Source: a virus | Taxonomy: Duplodnaviria > Heunggongvirae > Uroviricota > Caudoviricetes | Strand: one strand, 5' to 3' | Length of the DNA stretch: 27,745 nucleotides | IMG/VR virus record: IMGVR_UViG_2537562194_000032 | Part shown: positions 1-6,000 of the stretch, piece after piece | How positions within the stretch are numbered: position 1 is the first letter of the stretch | Layout: every line of letters begins with the position of its first letter | Made by a program: the position numbers

Positions 1-3000
1 TTACGATCGTAAACTATTTTTTCGCTGATAAAATACAGAGGTTCTCCCTCCCGGCAATTCACGCTCAACATACCGATCCATCTCAAGCCTCACTCCCAGC
101 ATCATCAGCATGCCTTCAACAATCCCCTCCGCTTTGTGAAGGCGTTTACCTATACAGGTGTCAGAGCACCCATGTTTCCGTGCCAGCGCCATGAACGTCT
201 CCCCCAACACGTAATAATCAACCAGCAAGTCATGCAGATCGCTGTTGTTCCTGTTAAGGCGAGCCATACACCCGCATATAATCATCGCGTCATCGTCACA
301 ACACTGTGGACGTGATTTTACTTTTTCGGGGATCAGCCTCTTAAATCCGGCAGCAATGGGCGACCATGTAACATCCTCATGGTTATTTGCCGCCCATGCC
401 CCCCAGCGCTCAAGAACCTGCCGGATATCACGCATCAGTATCTTTACCCCATCCGCGGTGAACCATAAGAACACCGTTGACGATAGCGTGTCTTTTCCCT
501 TCTTTATCGCCAATGTATTTTCTGACTGTGGCACGATTGCAGTTCAGTATTCGGGCCACTTCGGTCTGATTTCCATATGCCTCAACAAGCATGTCAGGAA
601 TGGTTTTTACGGTGAACGTCATGCGGCCTCACTTCTGCTGTTTCGCAGGTCTTTAAGTTTCTGTTGATACTCTGCCTTGATCGCCTTGCACTCTTCGACA
701 GTCCAGCGGTGGCGACTATGGTTTGATTCGATTTCGTCTACTGCTTCCTGCCCGATGCGGTTAATCAGTTCGACACGATACGGAACGAGATTTCCGCTTT
801 TGTACTGGTTACACACCACGCATTGCTTATGGATATTGCGTTCATCAAATCTGAGCTGAGGTGCCGCAGCTGTTGTACGGTAATGGCCTGCATCCCACTG
901 GGCTGAATCGAACGTCCCGCATGAAACACACGGCAAATGACGGTCCCGCTCCCTGATATAAGCATTCACAGCCTGTTGTGCCTGCTTAATCCAGTAACTG
1001 CGGGGCTGTAAGTCCCTCCTGCGCGCTTTCAGCTTGTCTGCCTGCTCTTTTGCTGAAGCTATCGCCTTTTCTTTTCTGACCAGTTCCAGTGCGCACTGAC
1101 CACAGCAAACTTTCTGATATGAGCGGAACGGCACAAACGAGGAGCCGCACACTTTGCATTTTTTTGGTTTACGTTGCTTCATCATCACCTCAGAAAAACG
1201 ACAGCAGGCGGTTATTCAGTTCAGGATTGTTTGAGCGCCCGAACACATGTTTTAACGCGGCATTAATCATTGCGTTGTAGCAACGTTCAAACTCATCCTG
1301 ATCCATATTCGCGTAACTCAGGCTTTTTGCCCGATATCTCACCTCGCCTCTTATGGTTGTGACCACATCATAGAACCCGGCAAGAATTGTCAGATTTTTA
1401 CGAAACTCATCAAACTGCGTCGCTTCATCAGAGAATTCGTATCCAGCATGTTCAGCGCACCAGTACTGAAAGCAGAAATTAAGAAAAGCGAACATCTTCC
1501 GGTGAAAAGATGGGTTACGGGTAAGTTTTGCTTCCAGTGTATACAGCTCACCGTTTTTAAATTTTGCCAGTCGGGGTAAATCGCGCTCATACGCCGGTAC
1601 AAATACGCCATTAGCCGCCTTGATCATCTCTATTTCCATCAGGCAGCCTCCGCTTTGAATTTGCGCGTCAACACATGTTCACGGGCTTCACACCCCTGAA
1701 TGAGCATGTCGTTAAAATCCGGCAAGTCAGGCCAGCGAATGCTGACTTTCTCAACGTCATTGCAACTCATGAGATTCTTATGCCCACATTTAAAGGCAGC
1801 CGCCAGACCTGCGCCGTGCGCATCATTGTCAGCAAAGATAATCAGGTGATTAACGCCAGGTGGCGCAATGAACTTCTCCATAAAACCGGAGTTCATTGTT
1901 GACCACACATTGCAGCGGAAGATTTGACGGCATGAAAGCGCAGTTTCGATACCCTCGGCTATCCCCAGAGTGGACGACACCGGATACAGGCGTATTGCCA
2001 CCGATTTGGCATGCTGCAAACCAGGCAACTCCTGTAGCGCGGTCATTTTTTTAGCCGCCTCTACATTCGCCTTGCGATCACCATCCAGCAACGTACGATG
2101 CAGATAGCAAAGAGAACCTTTGTCATCTGTTGCAATGGCGTAAATTGCCTGATATTCGCGCCCGCTGGCGATCTGACGGTCACAAAAACGCACGGATTCG
2201 GTCGGTAACTGGAGTATTCCCCTCCCCTGCAGGTACGCCTCACCTGTTGTACCCCGCAGACACGGGAGTCCGGCAAACTTATCTATGACCAGCTCCCGCT
2301 TTCTGCTTATCTCTGTTACAGGCTGGCTGACTTTCTCCCTCTTCCAGGTATTTCCGATCAGCCGATCGATTTCATCACACAACGTCACCCAGGGCTTACC
2401 CGTGGCAAGTTGCAACAGATTCATCCCGTCCCCGTGACCACAGACGCAAATCCATGAACCGGAACCATCCTTATCATCACAGCGAAATTTACCTCTGGCA
2501 CCACATATCGGGCAGGGTCCGTTGTAATGTTTCACACCAGTAACAGGAGGCATGCCGTAATATTCAAAAATCCGGCTCCAGTGCCCCACGGCTGCATCTC
2601 TAGTTCGCATGCTGGCCTCCTGTCATGGCTTTCTTGCGCCCTTTGGCATAGGCAATGGTCTTTGACTTGATGAAGTTGTACACTTCAACTGAGGTTTGCA
2701 GCGGCGCATTACTGAAGCCTTTAGGCCAAACCCCGAACTTCTCCTTGTAGGTATGAGCACACCATCCGTCACTCAGTGGCTTACCTGTCGCGTTGCGGTA
2801 ATTCTGATACCCCTTGATCTCGCTCCACCAACGCTGTTTTTCCTCACGGGTGTATTCGCGTTTCCCTTTGTTGACGCGTGAAAGCTTACGATCGCGATCT
2901 GTCGCCACGTCATCACCACCAAGAGGACGAAATCCACATTTGGGACACATATGCACGCCAGCAGGCTTCATGAAGTGGCATTTGGGGCATTCCCTGGGAA

Positions 3001-6000
3001 GTTTCTCAGCCTTAACCTCACTCCCGCCAGCAGACGCTTTCATTCCGTCATTTTTTCCCGGAAGTTCGTCATACTCGATATCCTCGGGGAAGCCCAGCCG
3101 ATGAACCGTGCCGGAATGGTCGAAAATCAATGCGCGTTTTTTACCAGACGCAGTACGTAACGCTCTCCCGATGCACTGCAACCAGCGGATTTCTGATTTG
3201 GTCGGACGGGCGTAGATCAGGCAGCGAACATCGCTGTCAAATCCCGCAACCAGTACGCCAACGTTGACAATTATTTTGGTCGCACCCTCTTCAAAACGGC
3301 GAATGATGTCCTGTCGTTCATCATGGGGGGTATCTGCCGTCATCACCTCTGCGCCAATGCCAGACTGTAAAAACTCACGGGTAACAAAGTTCGCATGAGC
3401 CACATTCACGCAGAAGCAGATCGTCGGTAAATCCTCGCCATTCTCAAGCCAGTTGCTGACGATATCGCCAACCAGATCCGAACTCCCCATGATGGATGCG
3501 AGCTGTTCCTCGTTGTAATCCCGTCCAAATACGGTGTTACTGGTTTTTACGCCAGCCAGATCAGGCATTGAGGGGGCAAAAAACTCATAATCGCTCAGAT
3601 CACCACGCTGAATAAGTTCACGAATCGTTGTAGGCTTGATCAGGCATTCGTAGTACTTCCCCATCCAGGCTGCGAACGGGGTGCCGGAAAGCCCAAGAAC
3701 CCTGATATCTTTGTCCCGGATAACCTCAAGTAACGCACGACGCTTCATGTGTGCTTCATCGATGATCAGCAGATCGATGTTGTCAGGAAACTCACGACGG
3801 ATCAGCGTGTCGGCACTGGCAATCTGAATCAGTCGTGACGGGTCATAGTTAGGGTGATCACGCCATACAAAACTGATTTCTTCCCACGGCAAACCGTATT
3901 CGGTGAAACGTTCCGCTGTCTGGTTCAGCAGGATGGTGTACGGACAGACAAACATCACCCGCATACCACGTTCAACCATTCCGGCAGTGACGAATGCTGC
4001 AAGACCAGTTTTGCCAGAGCCAGTGGGTGCATACATCAGGTACGTGCGATGCTGTTTCCACTGGTGCCGCAGCTGGTTTAAACCGCGCTCCTGAGCAAAG
4101 TTTGGGGTGATTTTCAGCATGACGCCCCCTTGCCATTCGCCGGGATGATATCGATCCCAGCATCGCTATAACTGGTCAGTTTCTTTGGCATTCGAAGCAA
4201 CACAAAGCCTTCAGTGCCACGACGTGCCAATTCACGCAATTTCATGACTGAGCGGGGTCGCGGAGAGCTACGATCGATCTCGATAGCCACACTCCCACCA
4301 GTTTTTGCTGTTGCGAGAATATCAACACGGAAATTTCTGCCATCGATTCTTACTGTGACATTGCTTGCCACATGCATCCCCTGTGACTCAAGGATCGTTA
4401 CAACATCAGCCAGAAAGCTGTAACGCTCCTCTGTTCTCAGTGGTACAGTGCTCAGTGTACGGATCAGTGCCGATTTGGTTGCTGCCGACATAGTTTATCA
4501 CTCAATAGTTAGCTCGATAATCATTTCACCAGAAACTATCGCGCGCTTATACAGTGATCTACCTAACCTATGTACCTGCCTTCTGGCCTAGGCCAAGGGA
4601 TACAGGCCTTACCAACGACTCCACCCCCTTACCCCCTCCTCGCTTCCTTTCAGGAAATTAGTTGCACTTGAAATTATCTCTAGCGCAACTAACCGCCATC
4701 ATGGTGTCGGGGGAAACTTCCGTACCGCTACTGGCGAAAGCATCCAGCCACGGCTGGCTCTCGCGTACTTCTGGACATACACCCGTAACCGGGTGTTGGC
4801 GCTCCGTCTTGCCCTGTTGCCCTTCCTGAACGATACAGGCTCCTTGTCCCACTCTTCCTGGTACACTCTCGCGTACTCTGCTGCAATTTTTACCCGGGTG
4901 GTCGGGTCTAGCTGTAACAATTGCTCCTGTATCCAGTCCCGATCAGCATCACAGTACTGCTCGGGCATAACCGTTTTGATTTGCCTGTTCACTCACACCT
5001 CCGATGGGCTGTGTGTCCAGGATTAATCATCGCCTCTTACGAACGCAGGGAACGGACGAACCTCTTCCGCCTCAACTGTGCCGTCATCAAAGGTTTTGAC
5101 GTATATTTCTCGTCCGACGAGAAGCGCTTTACTGATTGCACTCTGCGCCACGCCAAAGTCCTTAGCGGCTTTCTTTTGGCCGAACCTGTATACGTAATCA
5201 GCCAGGGTCTCTTTTTTCATCGCCATAACTGACTCCTTCAAAATGCCCATATCATTACGCACAGTTATTAAAATGTCAACACCGCAGATATTTCATTACA
5301 TATAACCAAAGGTGATATGGTATGAACATGAAAAAGAAACCGTTAACCCCTGAGCAACTGGAAGACGCCAAGCGTCTGAAAAGTATTTTTAACGCTAAAA
5401 AGAAAGAGTTAGGCCTGTCGCAGGAATCATTAGCCTATGAATTAGGTGTTACCCAAAGCGCTGTTAATCAGCTAATGGCTGGCATCAACGCCATAAATGC
5501 CAGCCACGCAGCACAGCTTGCTAAGATACTGAATGTAAAGGTCGGAGATTTCAGTCCCAGCCTGGCAAAATCTATTGCAGAAATGGCGCTCGCAATTGAA
5601 GAGCCATTAACTCGTGTCCCCGCTTACGAATATCCGTTACTCTCCTGCGTACAAGCTGGCGCATTCTCAATGGATGATATTTCGTACACCGCAAAAGATG
5701 CGATTAAATGGATCTCCACCACCACAAAAGCCAGTGACAGGTCGTTCTGGCTGGAGGTCAAGGGGCATTCAATGACCGCACCGCAGGGTGGTAAACCCAG
5801 CTTCCCTGAAGGTATGCTGATACTCGTTGACCCTGAACGGGAAATCGAGGATGGCGATTTTTGCGTGGCCCGAATGAACGGCGATGAATTTACCTTCAAA
5901 CGATTCATTCGTGAGAGCGGTAAAGCGTACCTGGAGCCGCTCAACCCACGATTCGACATGATTGAGTGTAACGAAAACTGCCAGTTTGTCGGAAAGGTCA

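Follow-up and report, generated by a model that had tools for sequence, protein, structure and literature searches.

A helicase-primase module (Eru1) in the O/P position of a Stx2a prophage and a candidate origin beside it

What serves as the replication module of a lambda-like prophage that has no Phage_rep_O or P domain, and where would its replication begin? The locus lies in a 27,745-nt stretch of the IMG/VR virus record IMGVR_UViG_2537562194_000032, the whole of which is called the window here. The sequence-only reading had proposed that a helicase-primase module replaces O/P, and this agreed with what was found, including PHROGs assignments to helicase and primase families. The central point is already known: judged by sequence identity, the module is the published Eru1 helicase-primase unit that stands in place of lambda O/P. 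Positions 1639-5300 were 100% identical over 3662 bp to the Stx2a phages P13374 (O104:H4) and TL-2011c (O103:H25), the former being the Shiga-toxin phage of the 2011 O104:H4 outbreak. Eru1 (EHEC phage replication unit 1) has been described from the Stx phages TL-2011c, P13374, and phi191 (Llarena et al. 2021, PMC8044961; PMC8951638). TL-2011c, the Eru1 reference phage, lacks O and P, and the unit's genes are given as eru1A (DEAD/DEAH helicase, 506 aa), eru1B (Toprim protein, 323 aa), and eru1C (DUF1367, 149 aa) (PMC8044961). Its place opposite cI is the one found here. ORF34, ORF35, the non-coding stretch, and an origin for Eru1 were not discussed in these two papers, nor was replication tested there. 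What we add is that ORF34 is not CII, that ORF35 has a predicted fold and a patchy occurrence, and that a polypyrimidine tract is conserved. We consider it probable that this is the early-right replication module of a Stx2a prophage, replacing lambda O, P, and ori, with its origin within 4492-4698.

A helicase-primase pair in the O/P slot

All genes of the region lie on the minus strand. The first gene of the rightward operon, cro (5023-5262; Pfam Cro, 4.8e-34), gives context and lies outside the module. It is followed by ORF34 (4699-4992; probable true start 4968, 89 aa), a 207-bp non-coding stretch (4492-4698), ORF35 (4114-4491, 125 aa; both ORFs are named as in P13374), the helicase gene eru1A (2600-4120, 506 aa), the primase gene eru1B (1639-2610, 323 aa), and eru1C (1190-1639; Pfam DUF1367, 4e-24). 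The ORF35 stop and the helicase start overlap (ATGCTGA), the helicase stop lies 8 nt past the primase ATG, and the primase TGA overlaps the ATG of eru1C, eru1C being translationally coupled to eru1B. A pR-like sigma-70 promoter (5251-5279, minus strand; TTGACA-17-AATGAT, 10 of 12 consensus matches) precedes cro in the AT-rich cI-cro gap and is presumed to be the source of transcription across the module, co-transcription being suggested by gene order.

The coupled trio of ORF35, helicase, and primase described earlier was thus found as overlapping genes at its positions. As a conserved unit the trio did not hold, and comparison with related prophages, which had been proposed as a check, gave a different composition: ORF34, the non-coding stretch, helicase, and primase recur among 46 relatives, whereas ORF35 is optional (9 of 46). 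These elements move together in prophages of Escherichia, Salmonella, Klebsiella, Serratia, Yersinia, Pantoea, Xenorhabdus, and Providencia, and prophages sharing the unit from ORF34 to the primase differ in cI and cro. The eru1C gene, counted within Eru1 by its describers (PMC8044961) and labelled NinB/Orf-like in RefSeq, was absent 3' of the primase in several relatives; those of Klebsiella and Serratia carry other genes there.

Domain annotation of the encoded proteins, likewise proposed earlier, assigned helicase and primase to replication families and left ORF35 with a single weak Pfam match. The SF2 DEAH helicase was borne out by eru1A scores above the Pfam cut-offs for ResIII (58.5 bits), Helicase_C (46.5), and DEAD (40.7) and by membership of phrog_16, "DNA helicase" (PHROGs, 3e-111). 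Its C-terminal zinc ribbon was visible in the sequence as CPKC...CPKC, but profile support was weak (DZR, E=0.003), and the conserved, Trp-rich C-terminal domain was unrelated to anything in Pfam or PDB. The nearest solved relative was E. coli RadD (6jde, 5.7e-17), with which the SF2 core aligns over residues 11-346; UvsW was a weaker match (2.8e-4), and XPB, PriA, and herpesvirus UL9 are likewise more distant SF2 helicases. RadD has a zinc finger after its core. Unlike RadD, eru1A has an unrelated C-terminal domain, sits in a phage replication slot beside a primase, and with 91 bits fell far short of the 720 required for the RadD equivalog. SF2 helicases are atypical as replicative (ring) helicases and RadD is a repair protein, so eru1A is perhaps not the fork helicase; it could initiate, remodel, or load, in which case host DnaB would still be required.

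The zinc-ribbon/Toprim-like primase also stood: eru1B exceeded the Pfam cut-offs for Zn_Ribbon_Prim (55.1), DUF7146 (63.4), and Toprim_3 (42.1) and belonged to phrog_510, "DNA primase" (PHROGs, 7.6e-141). The Toprim glutamate (AEGIETA) and D-x-D (FADNDAHG) were both present, and in a pairwise alignment with a Klebsiella phage homologue (59% identity) both motifs fell within conserved stretches. The protein resembles the T7 gp4 and P4 alpha primases in having the zinc ribbon PF08273 and a Toprim domain with catalytic E and DxD. It differs from them in being unfused to a helicase, with a separate SF2 partner instead of an SF4/SF3 ring helicase, and in carrying DUF7146 between ribbon and Toprim; a sequence search of the PDB gave no relative.

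With RadD as its closest characterised relative and UvsW behind it, the helicase could be taken, together with the Toprim protein, as a recombination, repair, or restart accessory. The pair would then be a RadD/UvsW/RecG-like remodeller with a Toprim nuclease or primase, and synthesis would be started otherwise, for example by host PriA/DnaB on intermediates from the phage Exo/RecT/SSB genes. The phage does carry exo, RecT, an SSB, and a Gam-like gene, and NinB/NinG-type recombination genes come next. We nevertheless find this quite improbable, given that the module lies exactly in the O/P slot and that no other replication gene or initiator was annotated in the left arm and early-right region within the window. 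Whole phage genomes likewise have no other replication candidate: in one complete genome of 37 kb, that of a Klebsiella phage entered as a plasmid, an ORF34-like gene, the helicase, and the Toprim gene are the sole ones. The T7-gp4/P4-type ribbon on the Toprim protein, its PHROGs primase family, and the distance from the RadD cut-off also speak against a repair role.

Slot, domain families, and the absence of other annotated replication genes are also the grounds on which we infer a replication function rather than anti-phage defence or superinfection exclusion, as had been argued before. A Hachiman-like or OLD/Toprim-type resemblance was reflected in partial PADLOC matches of the helicase (PbeA, 5e-18; type IV REase, 1.3e-16), but these were limited to generic SF2 core segments, and ORF35, primase, and ORF34 gave no PADLOC match. 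The genes would moreover belong to the lytic operon of pR, shut down by repression in a lysogen, and a defence encoded by the prophage would call for the opposite state of expression; ORF35, for its part, is missing from most relatives and elsewhere fused to replication initiators. A defensive role is accordingly a very remote prospect.

ORF34 and the non-coding stretch

ORF34 had been called the cII-position gene. It occupies the position of lambda cII, but the name is misleading: Pfam detected no CII or HTH domain, and the gene is linked to the helicase-primase pair instead. Its likely start is the conserved Met9 (4968), matching the RefSeq annotation, and the product is a small, basic protein of three helices with the invariant motif N-R-A-R-x-x-A-N-T-R-L-R. 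That it is a functional CII analogue, a lysis-lysogeny regulator next to the module by chance and no part of it, would suit its size, equal to that of lambda cII, its helical and basic character, and its place directly after cro. This seems improbable to us when the gene lies upstream of the helicase in all 46 relatives, whichever cI/cro type they have and also where none was detected. None of the 43 homologous clusters has a name, and the helicase-primase pair adjoined in each of the three neighbourhoods inspected (Serratia, Salmonella). ORF34 is therefore better regarded as part of the module, where it is a candidate origin-binding or helicase-recruiting factor.

The stretch 4492-4698 had been described as about 200 bp of non-coding DNA, and no convincing or conserved ORF was found in it. 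It matched no Rfam family, and consensus sequences of promoters or terminators were not found; nor did it contain long tandem iterons or, at a GC content of 44-55%, an AT-rich unwinding element. Within it lie the two non-coding blocks that are most conserved across the module family, and the G-richest 60-nt stretch of the sense strand within 1-5300 (47% G). The best conserved element was the polypyrimidine tract noted in the earlier reading, CCACCCCCTTACCCCCTCCTCGCTTCC (4621-4647, plus strand). At its core lies a CSB-II-like double G-run, G5-TAA-G5 on the sense (minus) strand and CCCCCTTACCCCC (C5TTAC5) on the plus strand (4624-4636), conserved at 80-99% per column among relatives. The core is unique in the 27.7-kb window, where 0.01 chance matches would be expected with one mismatch allowed. 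The sense strand carried two G-runs (at least 4 each, 1-3 nt apart) in 43 of the 46 intergenic regions, with an exact GGTAAGG centre in 33 of 42 distinct intergenic sequences; in relatives with the G-tract, G5-TAA-G5 lay in every case in the gap from ORF34 to the helicase and in sense orientation. Three Eru1-like loci (L007, L015, and L019) lacked the tract, and their intergenic region differs.

The second block, CATAGGTTAGGTAGATCACTGTA (4550-4572, minus strand), was conserved at 70-99% per column and contains GATC (4556-4559) and the heptamer GGTTAGG. The proteins encoded on either side of the stretch, by comparison, are only about 37-68% identical. As CATAGGTTAGGTAGATC it follows the G-tract by 63-74 nt, about six helical turns downstream, and is a candidate initiator-binding site. 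The heptamer GGT(A/T)AGG occurred three times in the whole window (4562-4568, 4607-4613, and 4627-4633), always on the same strand and within 4492-4698. About 20 of 42 relatives had a second copy 63-74 nt past the G-tract, and in none was it antisense. The inverted repeats pointed out before are present, as an imperfect hairpin with 17-nt arms (4658-4692; arms 4658-4674 and 4676-4692, 82% complementary) directly 3' of the ORF34 stop, but their importance was not upheld: the repeat is lineage-specific and the least conserved feature, relatives having another one there (e.g., ATGTACT...AGTACAT). It forms the main stem of an RNA fold only modestly better than shuffles (z = -2.18). Of the two functions suggested for the stretch, origin or promoter, we prefer the origin; a promoter consensus was not found. 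We propose G5-TAA-G5 as the core origin element, and the conserved G-run motif probably marks the origin.

The G-run motif in other replicons

Viral contigs were searched with the 15-mer GGGGGGTAAGGGGGG, and the spacer-permuted GGGGGGAATGGGGGG served as control. The 15-mer matched more than 120 viral-contig stretches; in the 24 that are Eru1-like, its place and orientation never varied. In about 28 unrelated contigs it lay inside the linker of wHTH initiator-like genes (HTH_36, DnaD_N, DUF1376) that are followed by DnaB-type helicases or DnaC/IstB-like loaders. Read in gene sense, these genes showed the order iterons, A-rich DNA, C6TTAC6, and the motif was translated in all three frames (PPLPP 11, (T/P)PLTP 14, PPYPP 2). 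In the G-rich orientation, the sequence downstream of the motif was richer in repeats than that upstream (8-mer repeat score 18.3 vs. 6.6), and a C5+ tract stood just upstream in 23 of 85 cases. The permuted control gave 63 matches, with symmetric repeat scores (8.9, 7.4) and C-tracts in 2 of 59. Given these 63 matches, part of the ~92 unrelated matches is noise, as chance matches of a 15-mer are expected in a collection of this size. The strand bias was opposite in the two classes, the sense strand being G-rich in Eru1 modules and C-rich in O-type initiator genes, so one transcription-driven mechanism cannot explain both.

The motif core was also identical to the core of teleost mtDNA CSB-2 (CAAACCCCCTTACCCCC). 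At CSB II, RNA polymerases are stopped by G-runs on the non-template strand, and the G-rich transcript, as a hybrid G-quadruplex/R-loop, both ends transcription and supplies the primer for DNA synthesis (PMC3488243, PMC4176368). Both vertebrate CSB-2 and the phage element have two such G-runs downstream of a promoter and at or near a replication origin, a candidate one in the phage. They differ in that the motif in O-type phage initiator genes is oriented against transcription and that the phage element is known from sequence. Homology is not claimable for a 13-nt element, and the resemblance may be convergent or coincidental.

The halting of RNA polymerases at CSB II lends some weight to reading 4492-4698 as an element that controls the pR operon in transcription or at the RNA level, the origin lying elsewhere, for instance within a gene as in lambda. 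Helicase-primase expression could then be governed there by a site of pausing, termination, or antitermination, or by an mRNA leader or processing site. A hairpin directly after the ORF34 stop, a G-run on the RNA-like strand in all Eru1-type loci with the tract, and the lack of an AT-rich region or long iterons in 4492-4698 would fit this. We judge it rather unlikely, however, as the stretch yielded neither a terminator or promoter consensus nor an Rfam family, the fold z-score was modest, and the hairpin is unconserved in sequence and followed by no U-tract. The motif of unrelated phages, near iterons and A-rich DNA, against transcription, and in three frames, fits a DNA-level origin better, and no repeat or AT-rich candidate origin was found within the helicase or primase genes.

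The preferred reading, an origin in 4492-4698, matches lambda in its slot (between the cII-position gene, which follows cro, and the nin genes), in its presumed CI and pR control, and in the need for an origin close to the initiator genes. It differs in that Eru1 brings its own helicase and primase where lambda hijacks DnaB and DnaG, and in that its candidate origin is intergenic while lambda's lies inside the initiator gene. The mapped lambda ori consists of four 18-bp iterons and A-rich DNA and lacks C5TTAC5, whereas the Eru1 stretch has no long iterons.

As gene order and the overlapping stop and start codons suggest, loss of CI would let pR transcription run through cro, ORF34, the 207-bp origin region, ORF35, eru1A, eru1B, and eru1C. 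The origin would have G5TAAG5 (4624-4636, sense strand) and the block at 4550-4572 as its core, a placement suggested by conservation and by the occurrence of the motif in unrelated phages at origins of iteron type. A phage factor might bind the conserved block and bring the helicase in to open the DNA; ORF34, always linked and with a basic invariant helix, and the helicase zinc-ribbon/C-terminal domain are the candidates. The herpesvirus UL9 protein and PriA are SF2 helicases able to act as origin- or structure-specific initiators, and the recruitment logic may be akin to theirs. Judging from domain content, the Toprim primase would make primers for extension by host Pol III. The G-run would most likely stabilise the opened or primed state, the least certain sub-step. 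One way would be for the G-rich RNA made from pR to remain in a stable RNA-DNA hybrid or hybrid G-quadruplex, by analogy with mitochondrial CSB II.

ORF35, an optional accessory

ORF35 is present in 9 relatives and missing from 37 of the 46, and in other settings the domain lies within O-type initiators. Its place in the module is optional and accessory, perhaps as a helper that binds or nicks structured DNA. Its weak Pfam match was REase_MTES_1575 (E=0.037), and no sequence family was detectable beyond 28 cluster representatives, which include one repeat-protein false positive (P0009). The structure model identifies ORF35 as a stand-alone domain of restriction-endonuclease-like (PD-(D/E)xK) fold, whose core runs alpha-beta-beta-beta-alpha-beta and whose expected strands bear conserved acidic residues. 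Core and acidic residues of the model are placed as in the PD-(D/E)xK proteins AF1548, NucS, Hjc, and Bax1. In contrast to these, the third motif position of the predicted nuclease fold is D73 where K is canonical, and a conserved K84 lies on the next helix.

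Gene order and identity of the module

The early-right operon of this phage is of the lambdoid type and lies on the minus strand of the window. A pR-like promoter (5279-5251), located by a promoter scan, is followed on that strand by cro (5023-5262; Pfam Cro, 5e-34), a 97-aa ORF in the cII position, ORF34 (4699-4992), a 207-bp non-coding stretch with no credible ORF (4492-4698), the 125-aa ORF35 (4114-4491), the helicase gene eru1A (2600-4120, 506 aa) and the gene for a primase-like protein, eru1B (1639-2610, 323 aa). After eru1B come a DUF1367/NinB-like gene (eru1C) and then NinG and Q, also on the minus strand. 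Overlapping stop and start codons link the four genes from ORF35 through the DUF1367 gene.

The region 1639-5300 was 100% identical to the Escherichia phages P13374 (O104:H4, Germany 2011) and TL-2011c (O103:H25, Norway 2006), and 98 Stx-phage records matched it at 95-100% identity. Its genes correspond to Eru1, an EHEC-phage replication unit with TL-2011c as reference, in which eru1A encodes a DEAD/DEAH helicase of 506 aa, eru1B a Toprim protein of 323 aa and eru1C a DUF1367 protein of 149 aa (PMC8044961, Llarena et al. 2021). The module was assigned to Eru1 by its 100% identity to the reference NC_019442, the confirmed domains, the lack of a Phage_rep_O hit and its location opposite cI. Eru1 phages are without O and P, and their lysogeny was reported to be less stable than that of lambdoid Stx phages (PMC8044961); follow-up typing distinguished 13 Eru classes (PMC8951638). 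ORF34, ORF35, the non-coding stretch and the origin are not discussed in PMC8044961 or PMC8951638, and the replication role is given there without a direct test. Because the genes were described as Eru1 in PMC8044961, the core of the finding is already known, and the replication assignment is still an inference.

The sequence-only reading had proposed a helicase-primase replication module in place of O/P, with a small ORF and a structured non-coding stretch upstream. That finding is real and correctly interpreted, yet the module is published and its sequence is that of the reference phages. For Stx production, induction and replication of the phage are needed, and Eru1 phages were present in the O104:H4 (2011) and O103:H25 (2006) outbreak strains (PMC8044961); the module is medically relevant, but already described. 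The added value lies in three leads, which concern the membership of ORF34 in the module, the fold of ORF35 and its occurrence elsewhere, and a specific, conserved and wider candidate for an origin motif. Together they give a testable unit map with a four-part core (ORF34, the ~200-bp non-coding region, helicase and primase), an optional nuclease-fold ORF35, and a 13-nt G-run motif plus a second block as origin candidates.

Helicase, primase and the case for replication

Pfam annotation bore out the domains that had been read from the sequence, with helicase domains in eru1A and a zinc ribbon and Toprim domain in eru1B. In eru1A, ResIII, DEAD and Helicase_C all scored above the Pfam cut-off. 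The translation carries a Walker A motif (APTGSGKT), a DEAH box and a C-terminal RecA-like domain, the features of a predicted SF2 DEAH-box helicase, together with a C-terminal CPKC...CPKC ribbon, and the motif stretches are conserved in a Klebsiella homologue that is 68% identical. In eru1B, the zinc ribbon (PF08273, 55.1 bits) is of the T7-gp4/P4 type and is accompanied by the Toprim domain (PF13362, 42.1 bits) and DUF7146. Its motifs CPICG...CVCG, AEGIETA (catalytic Glu) and FADNDAHG (DxD) fall in conserved stretches of the pairwise alignment, and this combination of zinc ribbon and Toprim points to a predicted primase of DnaG/T7-gp4-type architecture. No solved or characterised close relative of eru1B was found. 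The module differs from the lambda O/P type in having no O domain (Phage_rep_O), no P-type DnaB recruiter and no iterons of at least 10 nt.

We consider it very probable that these genes form a replication module. The earlier preference for replication over defence agrees with the PHROGs families, which assigned the helicase to 'DNA helicase' (3e-111) and the primase to 'DNA primase' (8e-141). A defence role for the helicase, the Toprim protein and ORF35 would find some footing in the partial core matches of the helicase to several unrelated PADLOC 2.0 systems, but no component matched any one system over its full length and eru1B, ORF35 and ORF34 gave no match at all, and we regard this role as scarcely credible. 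A pure repair or restart function of the helicase and Toprim protein is suggested by RadD, the nearest characterised relative of eru1A; against this, eru1A scored 91.3 bits with the RadD equivalog NF053632, over the core only, versus a cut-off of 720, which makes it a relative rather than a family member, and such a function is improbable. In a replication module, eru1A would act, by analogy with UL9 or PriA, as an origin opener or remodeller.

The left arm of the phage encodes int/xis, Exo, RecT, SSB, a Gam-like protein, Kil, anti-repressors and a methyltransferase/endonuclease pair, and no other initiator, helicase or loader was found there. The methyltransferase gene (489 aa) overlaps a 317-aa gene annotated 'restriction endonuclease' (P13374 ORF31 and ORF30) beside cI, at 6130-8549 on the plus strand. 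Judged by these annotations, the immunity/pL region of the prophage would hold a restriction-modification-like pair. At the other end of the window, ~23152-27745 extends beyond the integrase end of the P13374 record (window x = record 23152 - x), and this last ~4.6 kb is presumably host chromosome beside the attachment site.

A similar helicase is carried by Klebsiella pneumoniae 'plasmid' records of 37-42 kb from several isolates. One of these, NZ_CP076549.1 (L210 in our comparison; 37,368 bp), is a complete temperate phage genome with integrase, repressor and tail genes, and its only replication candidates are an ORF34-like protein, the helicase and the Toprim protein. The phage recorded as a plasmid may have been captured as an extrachromosomal circle or may be a phage-plasmid.

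ORF34 and ORF35

The module was compared with Klebsiella phage KPP5665-2, 19 prophage loci (Xenorhabdus, Yersinia, Pantoea, Providencia, Budvicia, Enterobacter), Serratia and Salmonella contexts and 24 viral contigs. Identity to the window was ~64-68% for the helicases of these relatives and ~52-59% for the primases. A homologue of ORF34 (36-58% identity) stood upstream of the helicase wherever upstream DNA was available, while cI and cro differed or were undetectable. Members of the ORF34 family are 84-121 aa long, with a conserved Met-Pro start that corresponds to Met9 of the window ORF and an invariant basic segment, N-R-A-R-x-x-A-N-T-R-L-R. No CII or HTH Pfam domain was found in ORF34, even at E<=10. 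Two identities were rejected: a CII protein, given the absence of a Pfam hit and co-variation with the replication genes, not with cI/cro, and a detached piece of O-type initiators, given an hhalign probability below 1% against two such proteins. The predicted structure has three helices (pLDDT 76.7), and a search for structural neighbours returned nothing informative. Because ORF34 is linked upstream of the helicase while cI and cro vary, and lacks a CII or HTH domain, it is part of the replication module and not a cII analogue. Since ORF35 was present in only nine of the 46 comparators, the conserved core is, as judged by gene content, ORF34, the non-coding DNA, the helicase and the primase, with ORF35 optional.

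A word-indexed homologue search with ORF35 recovered only near-identical E. coli proteins. An exhaustive HMMER search gave 28 cluster representatives at E<=1e-3, one of which (P0009) is a repeat-protein false positive. The domain is also found as part of larger replication proteins. It follows Phage_rep_O in the 'O' protein of Providencia phage PSTCR7lys (L003:4365-5537), which lies directly upstream of a DnaB-type helicase; it precedes a Phg_2220_C domain in P0019, and it follows a DUF6291 domain or another N-terminal region in P0014, P0018 and P0023. The structural model of ORF35 has the alpha-beta-beta-beta-alpha-beta arrangement of a predicted PD-(D/E)xK core. E71 and D73 are invariant, D57 is nearly so and K84 is invariant nearby, which makes these residues a candidate PD-(D/E)xK triad that has D instead of K at position 73. 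ORF35 most plausibly represents a stand-alone copy of a domain that serves phage initiators as an accessory. To our knowledge, a PD-(D/E)xK domain inside phage initiators has not been described.

The non-coding stretch and its G-run motif

Alignment of the 42 distinct intergenic regions from the 46 comparator loci revealed two strongly conserved blocks, while the flanking ORF34 and ORF35 proteins were only ~37-50% identical in the same comparisons. The first block is a double G-run on the sense strand (4636-4624, GGGGGTAAGGGGG), conserved at 80-99% per column. The second, CATAGGTTAGGTAGATCACTGTA (4572-4550), is conserved at 70-99% per column and contains a GATC site; candidates for its recogniser are ORF34 and the C-terminal domain of the helicase. 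In 43 of the 46 regions there was a pair of G-runs of at least 4 nt, 1-3 nt apart; each of these loci had one such pair, located after ORF34 and before the next gene and without exception on the sense strand. The heptamer GGT(A/T)AGG has three copies in the whole 27.7-kb window, all on one strand within 4562-4633; these 7-nt repeats are thus clustered in 72 bp, with no AT-rich element of the kind expected in an iteron-type origin. A second heptamer copy lay 63-74 nt after the G-run in ~20 of 42 relatives, none of which has an antisense copy. Over 60 nt the stretch reaches 47% G on the sense strand, the highest value in 1-5300, and no other part of the window's first 6.2 kb has so strong a GC skew. 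On balance, we lean modestly towards an origin lying within 4492-4698.

The polypyrimidine tract and inverted repeat of the sequence-only reading were located where it had placed them. The inverted repeat, which it had stressed, is present at 4658-4692; its sequence is not conserved, and relatives carry a different repeat at the same site. The stretch had no Rfam match and a folding z of only −2.18, and an Rfam scan of 1-9000 at E<=1 gave nothing but a chance miRNA match elsewhere. Promoter and terminator scanning of 3900-5400 found only the pR-like promoter and nothing in the non-coding stretch, leaving an oop-like antisense RNA or a tR1-like terminator unsupported. Neither iterons of at least 10 nt nor a GC dip were found in the helicase gene, the primase gene or the stretch. 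A small conserved peptide was rejected by inspection, as the stretch has no ATG in the window and the ATGs of the relatives do not share a frame.

The G-run was also found outside Eru1. A scan of IMG/VR for the 15-mer GGGGGGTAAGGGGGG returned at least 120 stretches, and among the matches listed, 24 were Eru1-like modules in which position and orientation of the motif were as expected. In ~28 of the ~92 other matches listed, it fell mid-protein in a gene of 230-400 aa that runs on the opposite strand. The products of several such genes carry, at the N terminus, wHTH domains (HTH_36, DnaD_N, DUF1376, Lin1244_N) that are characteristic of phage initiators or replisome organisers; these genes are followed by genes for DnaB-type helicases, IstB/DnaC-like loaders, Toprim_2 or Prim-Pol proteins. 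Read in gene sense, the order is tandem iterons, A-rich DNA and C6TTAC6, to which a G-run is often added; this is the layout of a lambda-style origin inside an initiator gene, the motif lying beyond the A-rich segment. Examples among the IMG/VR contigs (L026-L145) are L064:3496-4428, L068:9128-10057, L056:5842-6993 and L088:9108-10016. The motif is absent from the mapped ori of lambda.

Statistics on the flanking DNA agree with this reading. Among the matches listed, in the G-rich orientation, the 8-mer repeat score was 18.3 in the 200 nt downstream versus 6.6 upstream, and scores of at least 8 were reached downstream in 36 of 85 loci and upstream in 15 of 85. A C5+ tract preceded the motif in 23 of these 85 loci, and the next 20 nt were 39% T. 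A permuted-spacer control, GGGGGGAATGGGGGG, gave only 63 hits in total, with symmetric repeat scores (8.9 and 7.4), C-tracts in 2 of 59 and 21% T in the following 20 nt. The translated motif reads PPLPP in 11, (T/P)PLTP in 14 and PPYPP in two of the matches listed. One explanation would be a coding accident of proline linkers. This was rejected since three frames are used and the permuted control, also proline-rich in all frames, lacks the association; frame use and spacer specificity argue for selection on DNA or RNA rather than on a linker. The idea that the 15-mer closes a conserved gene upstream (...GG-stop) was likewise rejected, as the frames ending at TAA are short or of low complexity and unconserved. 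Because the motif accompanies unrelated initiators on contigs of 29-72% GC, a mechanism through universal machinery or nucleic-acid structure is favoured over a motif-specific protein. The possibilities are a stable rG:dC hybrid, a G-quadruplex, an unwinding boundary and a primase start site on a pyrimidine template. The 15-mer may be a general phage-origin element. Neither an Eru1 origin nor a phage G-run origin element was found in the literature searched.

Literature matches to the motif were mostly from vertebrate mitochondrial genomes, where CAAACCCCCTTACCCCC is the teleost control-region block CSB-2, and the window sequence CCCCCTTACCCCC is identical to the core of that block. At human CSB II, nascent RNA rich in G combines with the G-rich non-template strand into a hybrid G-quadruplex/R-loop, which ends transcription and yields the primer for H-strand synthesis (PMC3488243, PMC4176368). 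Eru1 has the same geometry, with G5TAAG5 (4624-4636) on the sense strand ~620 nt downstream of the pR-like promoter; in both, the non-template strand is the one rich in G. Since this geometry is shared, transcription-coupled opening or priming at Eru1 is plausible by analogy. In this model, pR transcripts, being rich in G, would stay at the origin in a persistent RNA-DNA hybrid or hybrid G-quadruplex, a structure through which the duplex would be opened or the leading-strand primer provided. In O-type initiator genes, unlike Eru1, the motif is oriented against gene transcription, and one transcription-based mechanism therefore cannot cover both classes. Homology cannot be claimed either, because the motif is only 13-15 nt long. 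We therefore hold a CSB-II-like R-loop or priming role of the G-run to be doubtful. Equally tentative, and rather unlikely, is the wider proposal that G5-6-TAA-G5-6 (C5-6TTAC5-6) is a core phage-origin element common to Eru1 units and the mechanistically unrelated wHTH-initiator modules (DnaB/loader), acting through nucleic-acid structure, without a dedicated protein, as a counterpart of CSB II. If the mechanism were true, the G-run would indicate the replication start of the Stx2a phage from the O104:H4 outbreak strain; a functional motif would extend the mitochondrial CSB-II priming principle to bacteriophages and offer a defined point at which Stx-phage replication could be blocked.

Several lineage-specific features were also observed. 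A perfect 12-bp palindrome, TGGCCTAGGCCA (4584-4595), lies between the two blocks in the E. coli Stx-phage lineage only and is not conserved in relatives. Three Xenorhabdus loci (L007, L015, L019) have a module variant without G5-6TAAG5-6, in which the region from ORF34 to the helicase differs, includes the terminator-like GGGGGAAAGCC...AACCCCCCTATTTTTTTT and holds an extra ~1-kb gene before the helicase. In Providencia/Xenorhabdus lineages (L014, L018, L006, L016, L117, L120, L142), repeats of the form (G/T)(C/T)TAGA(T/C)G, such as GTTTAGATGTCTAGATTG and CTTAGACGTCTAGATGG, occur on both sides of the G-tract within ~60 nt. These CTAGATG-type repeats look like iterons, and their counterparts in the window, GCGCTAGAGAT and GGTAGATC, are faint.
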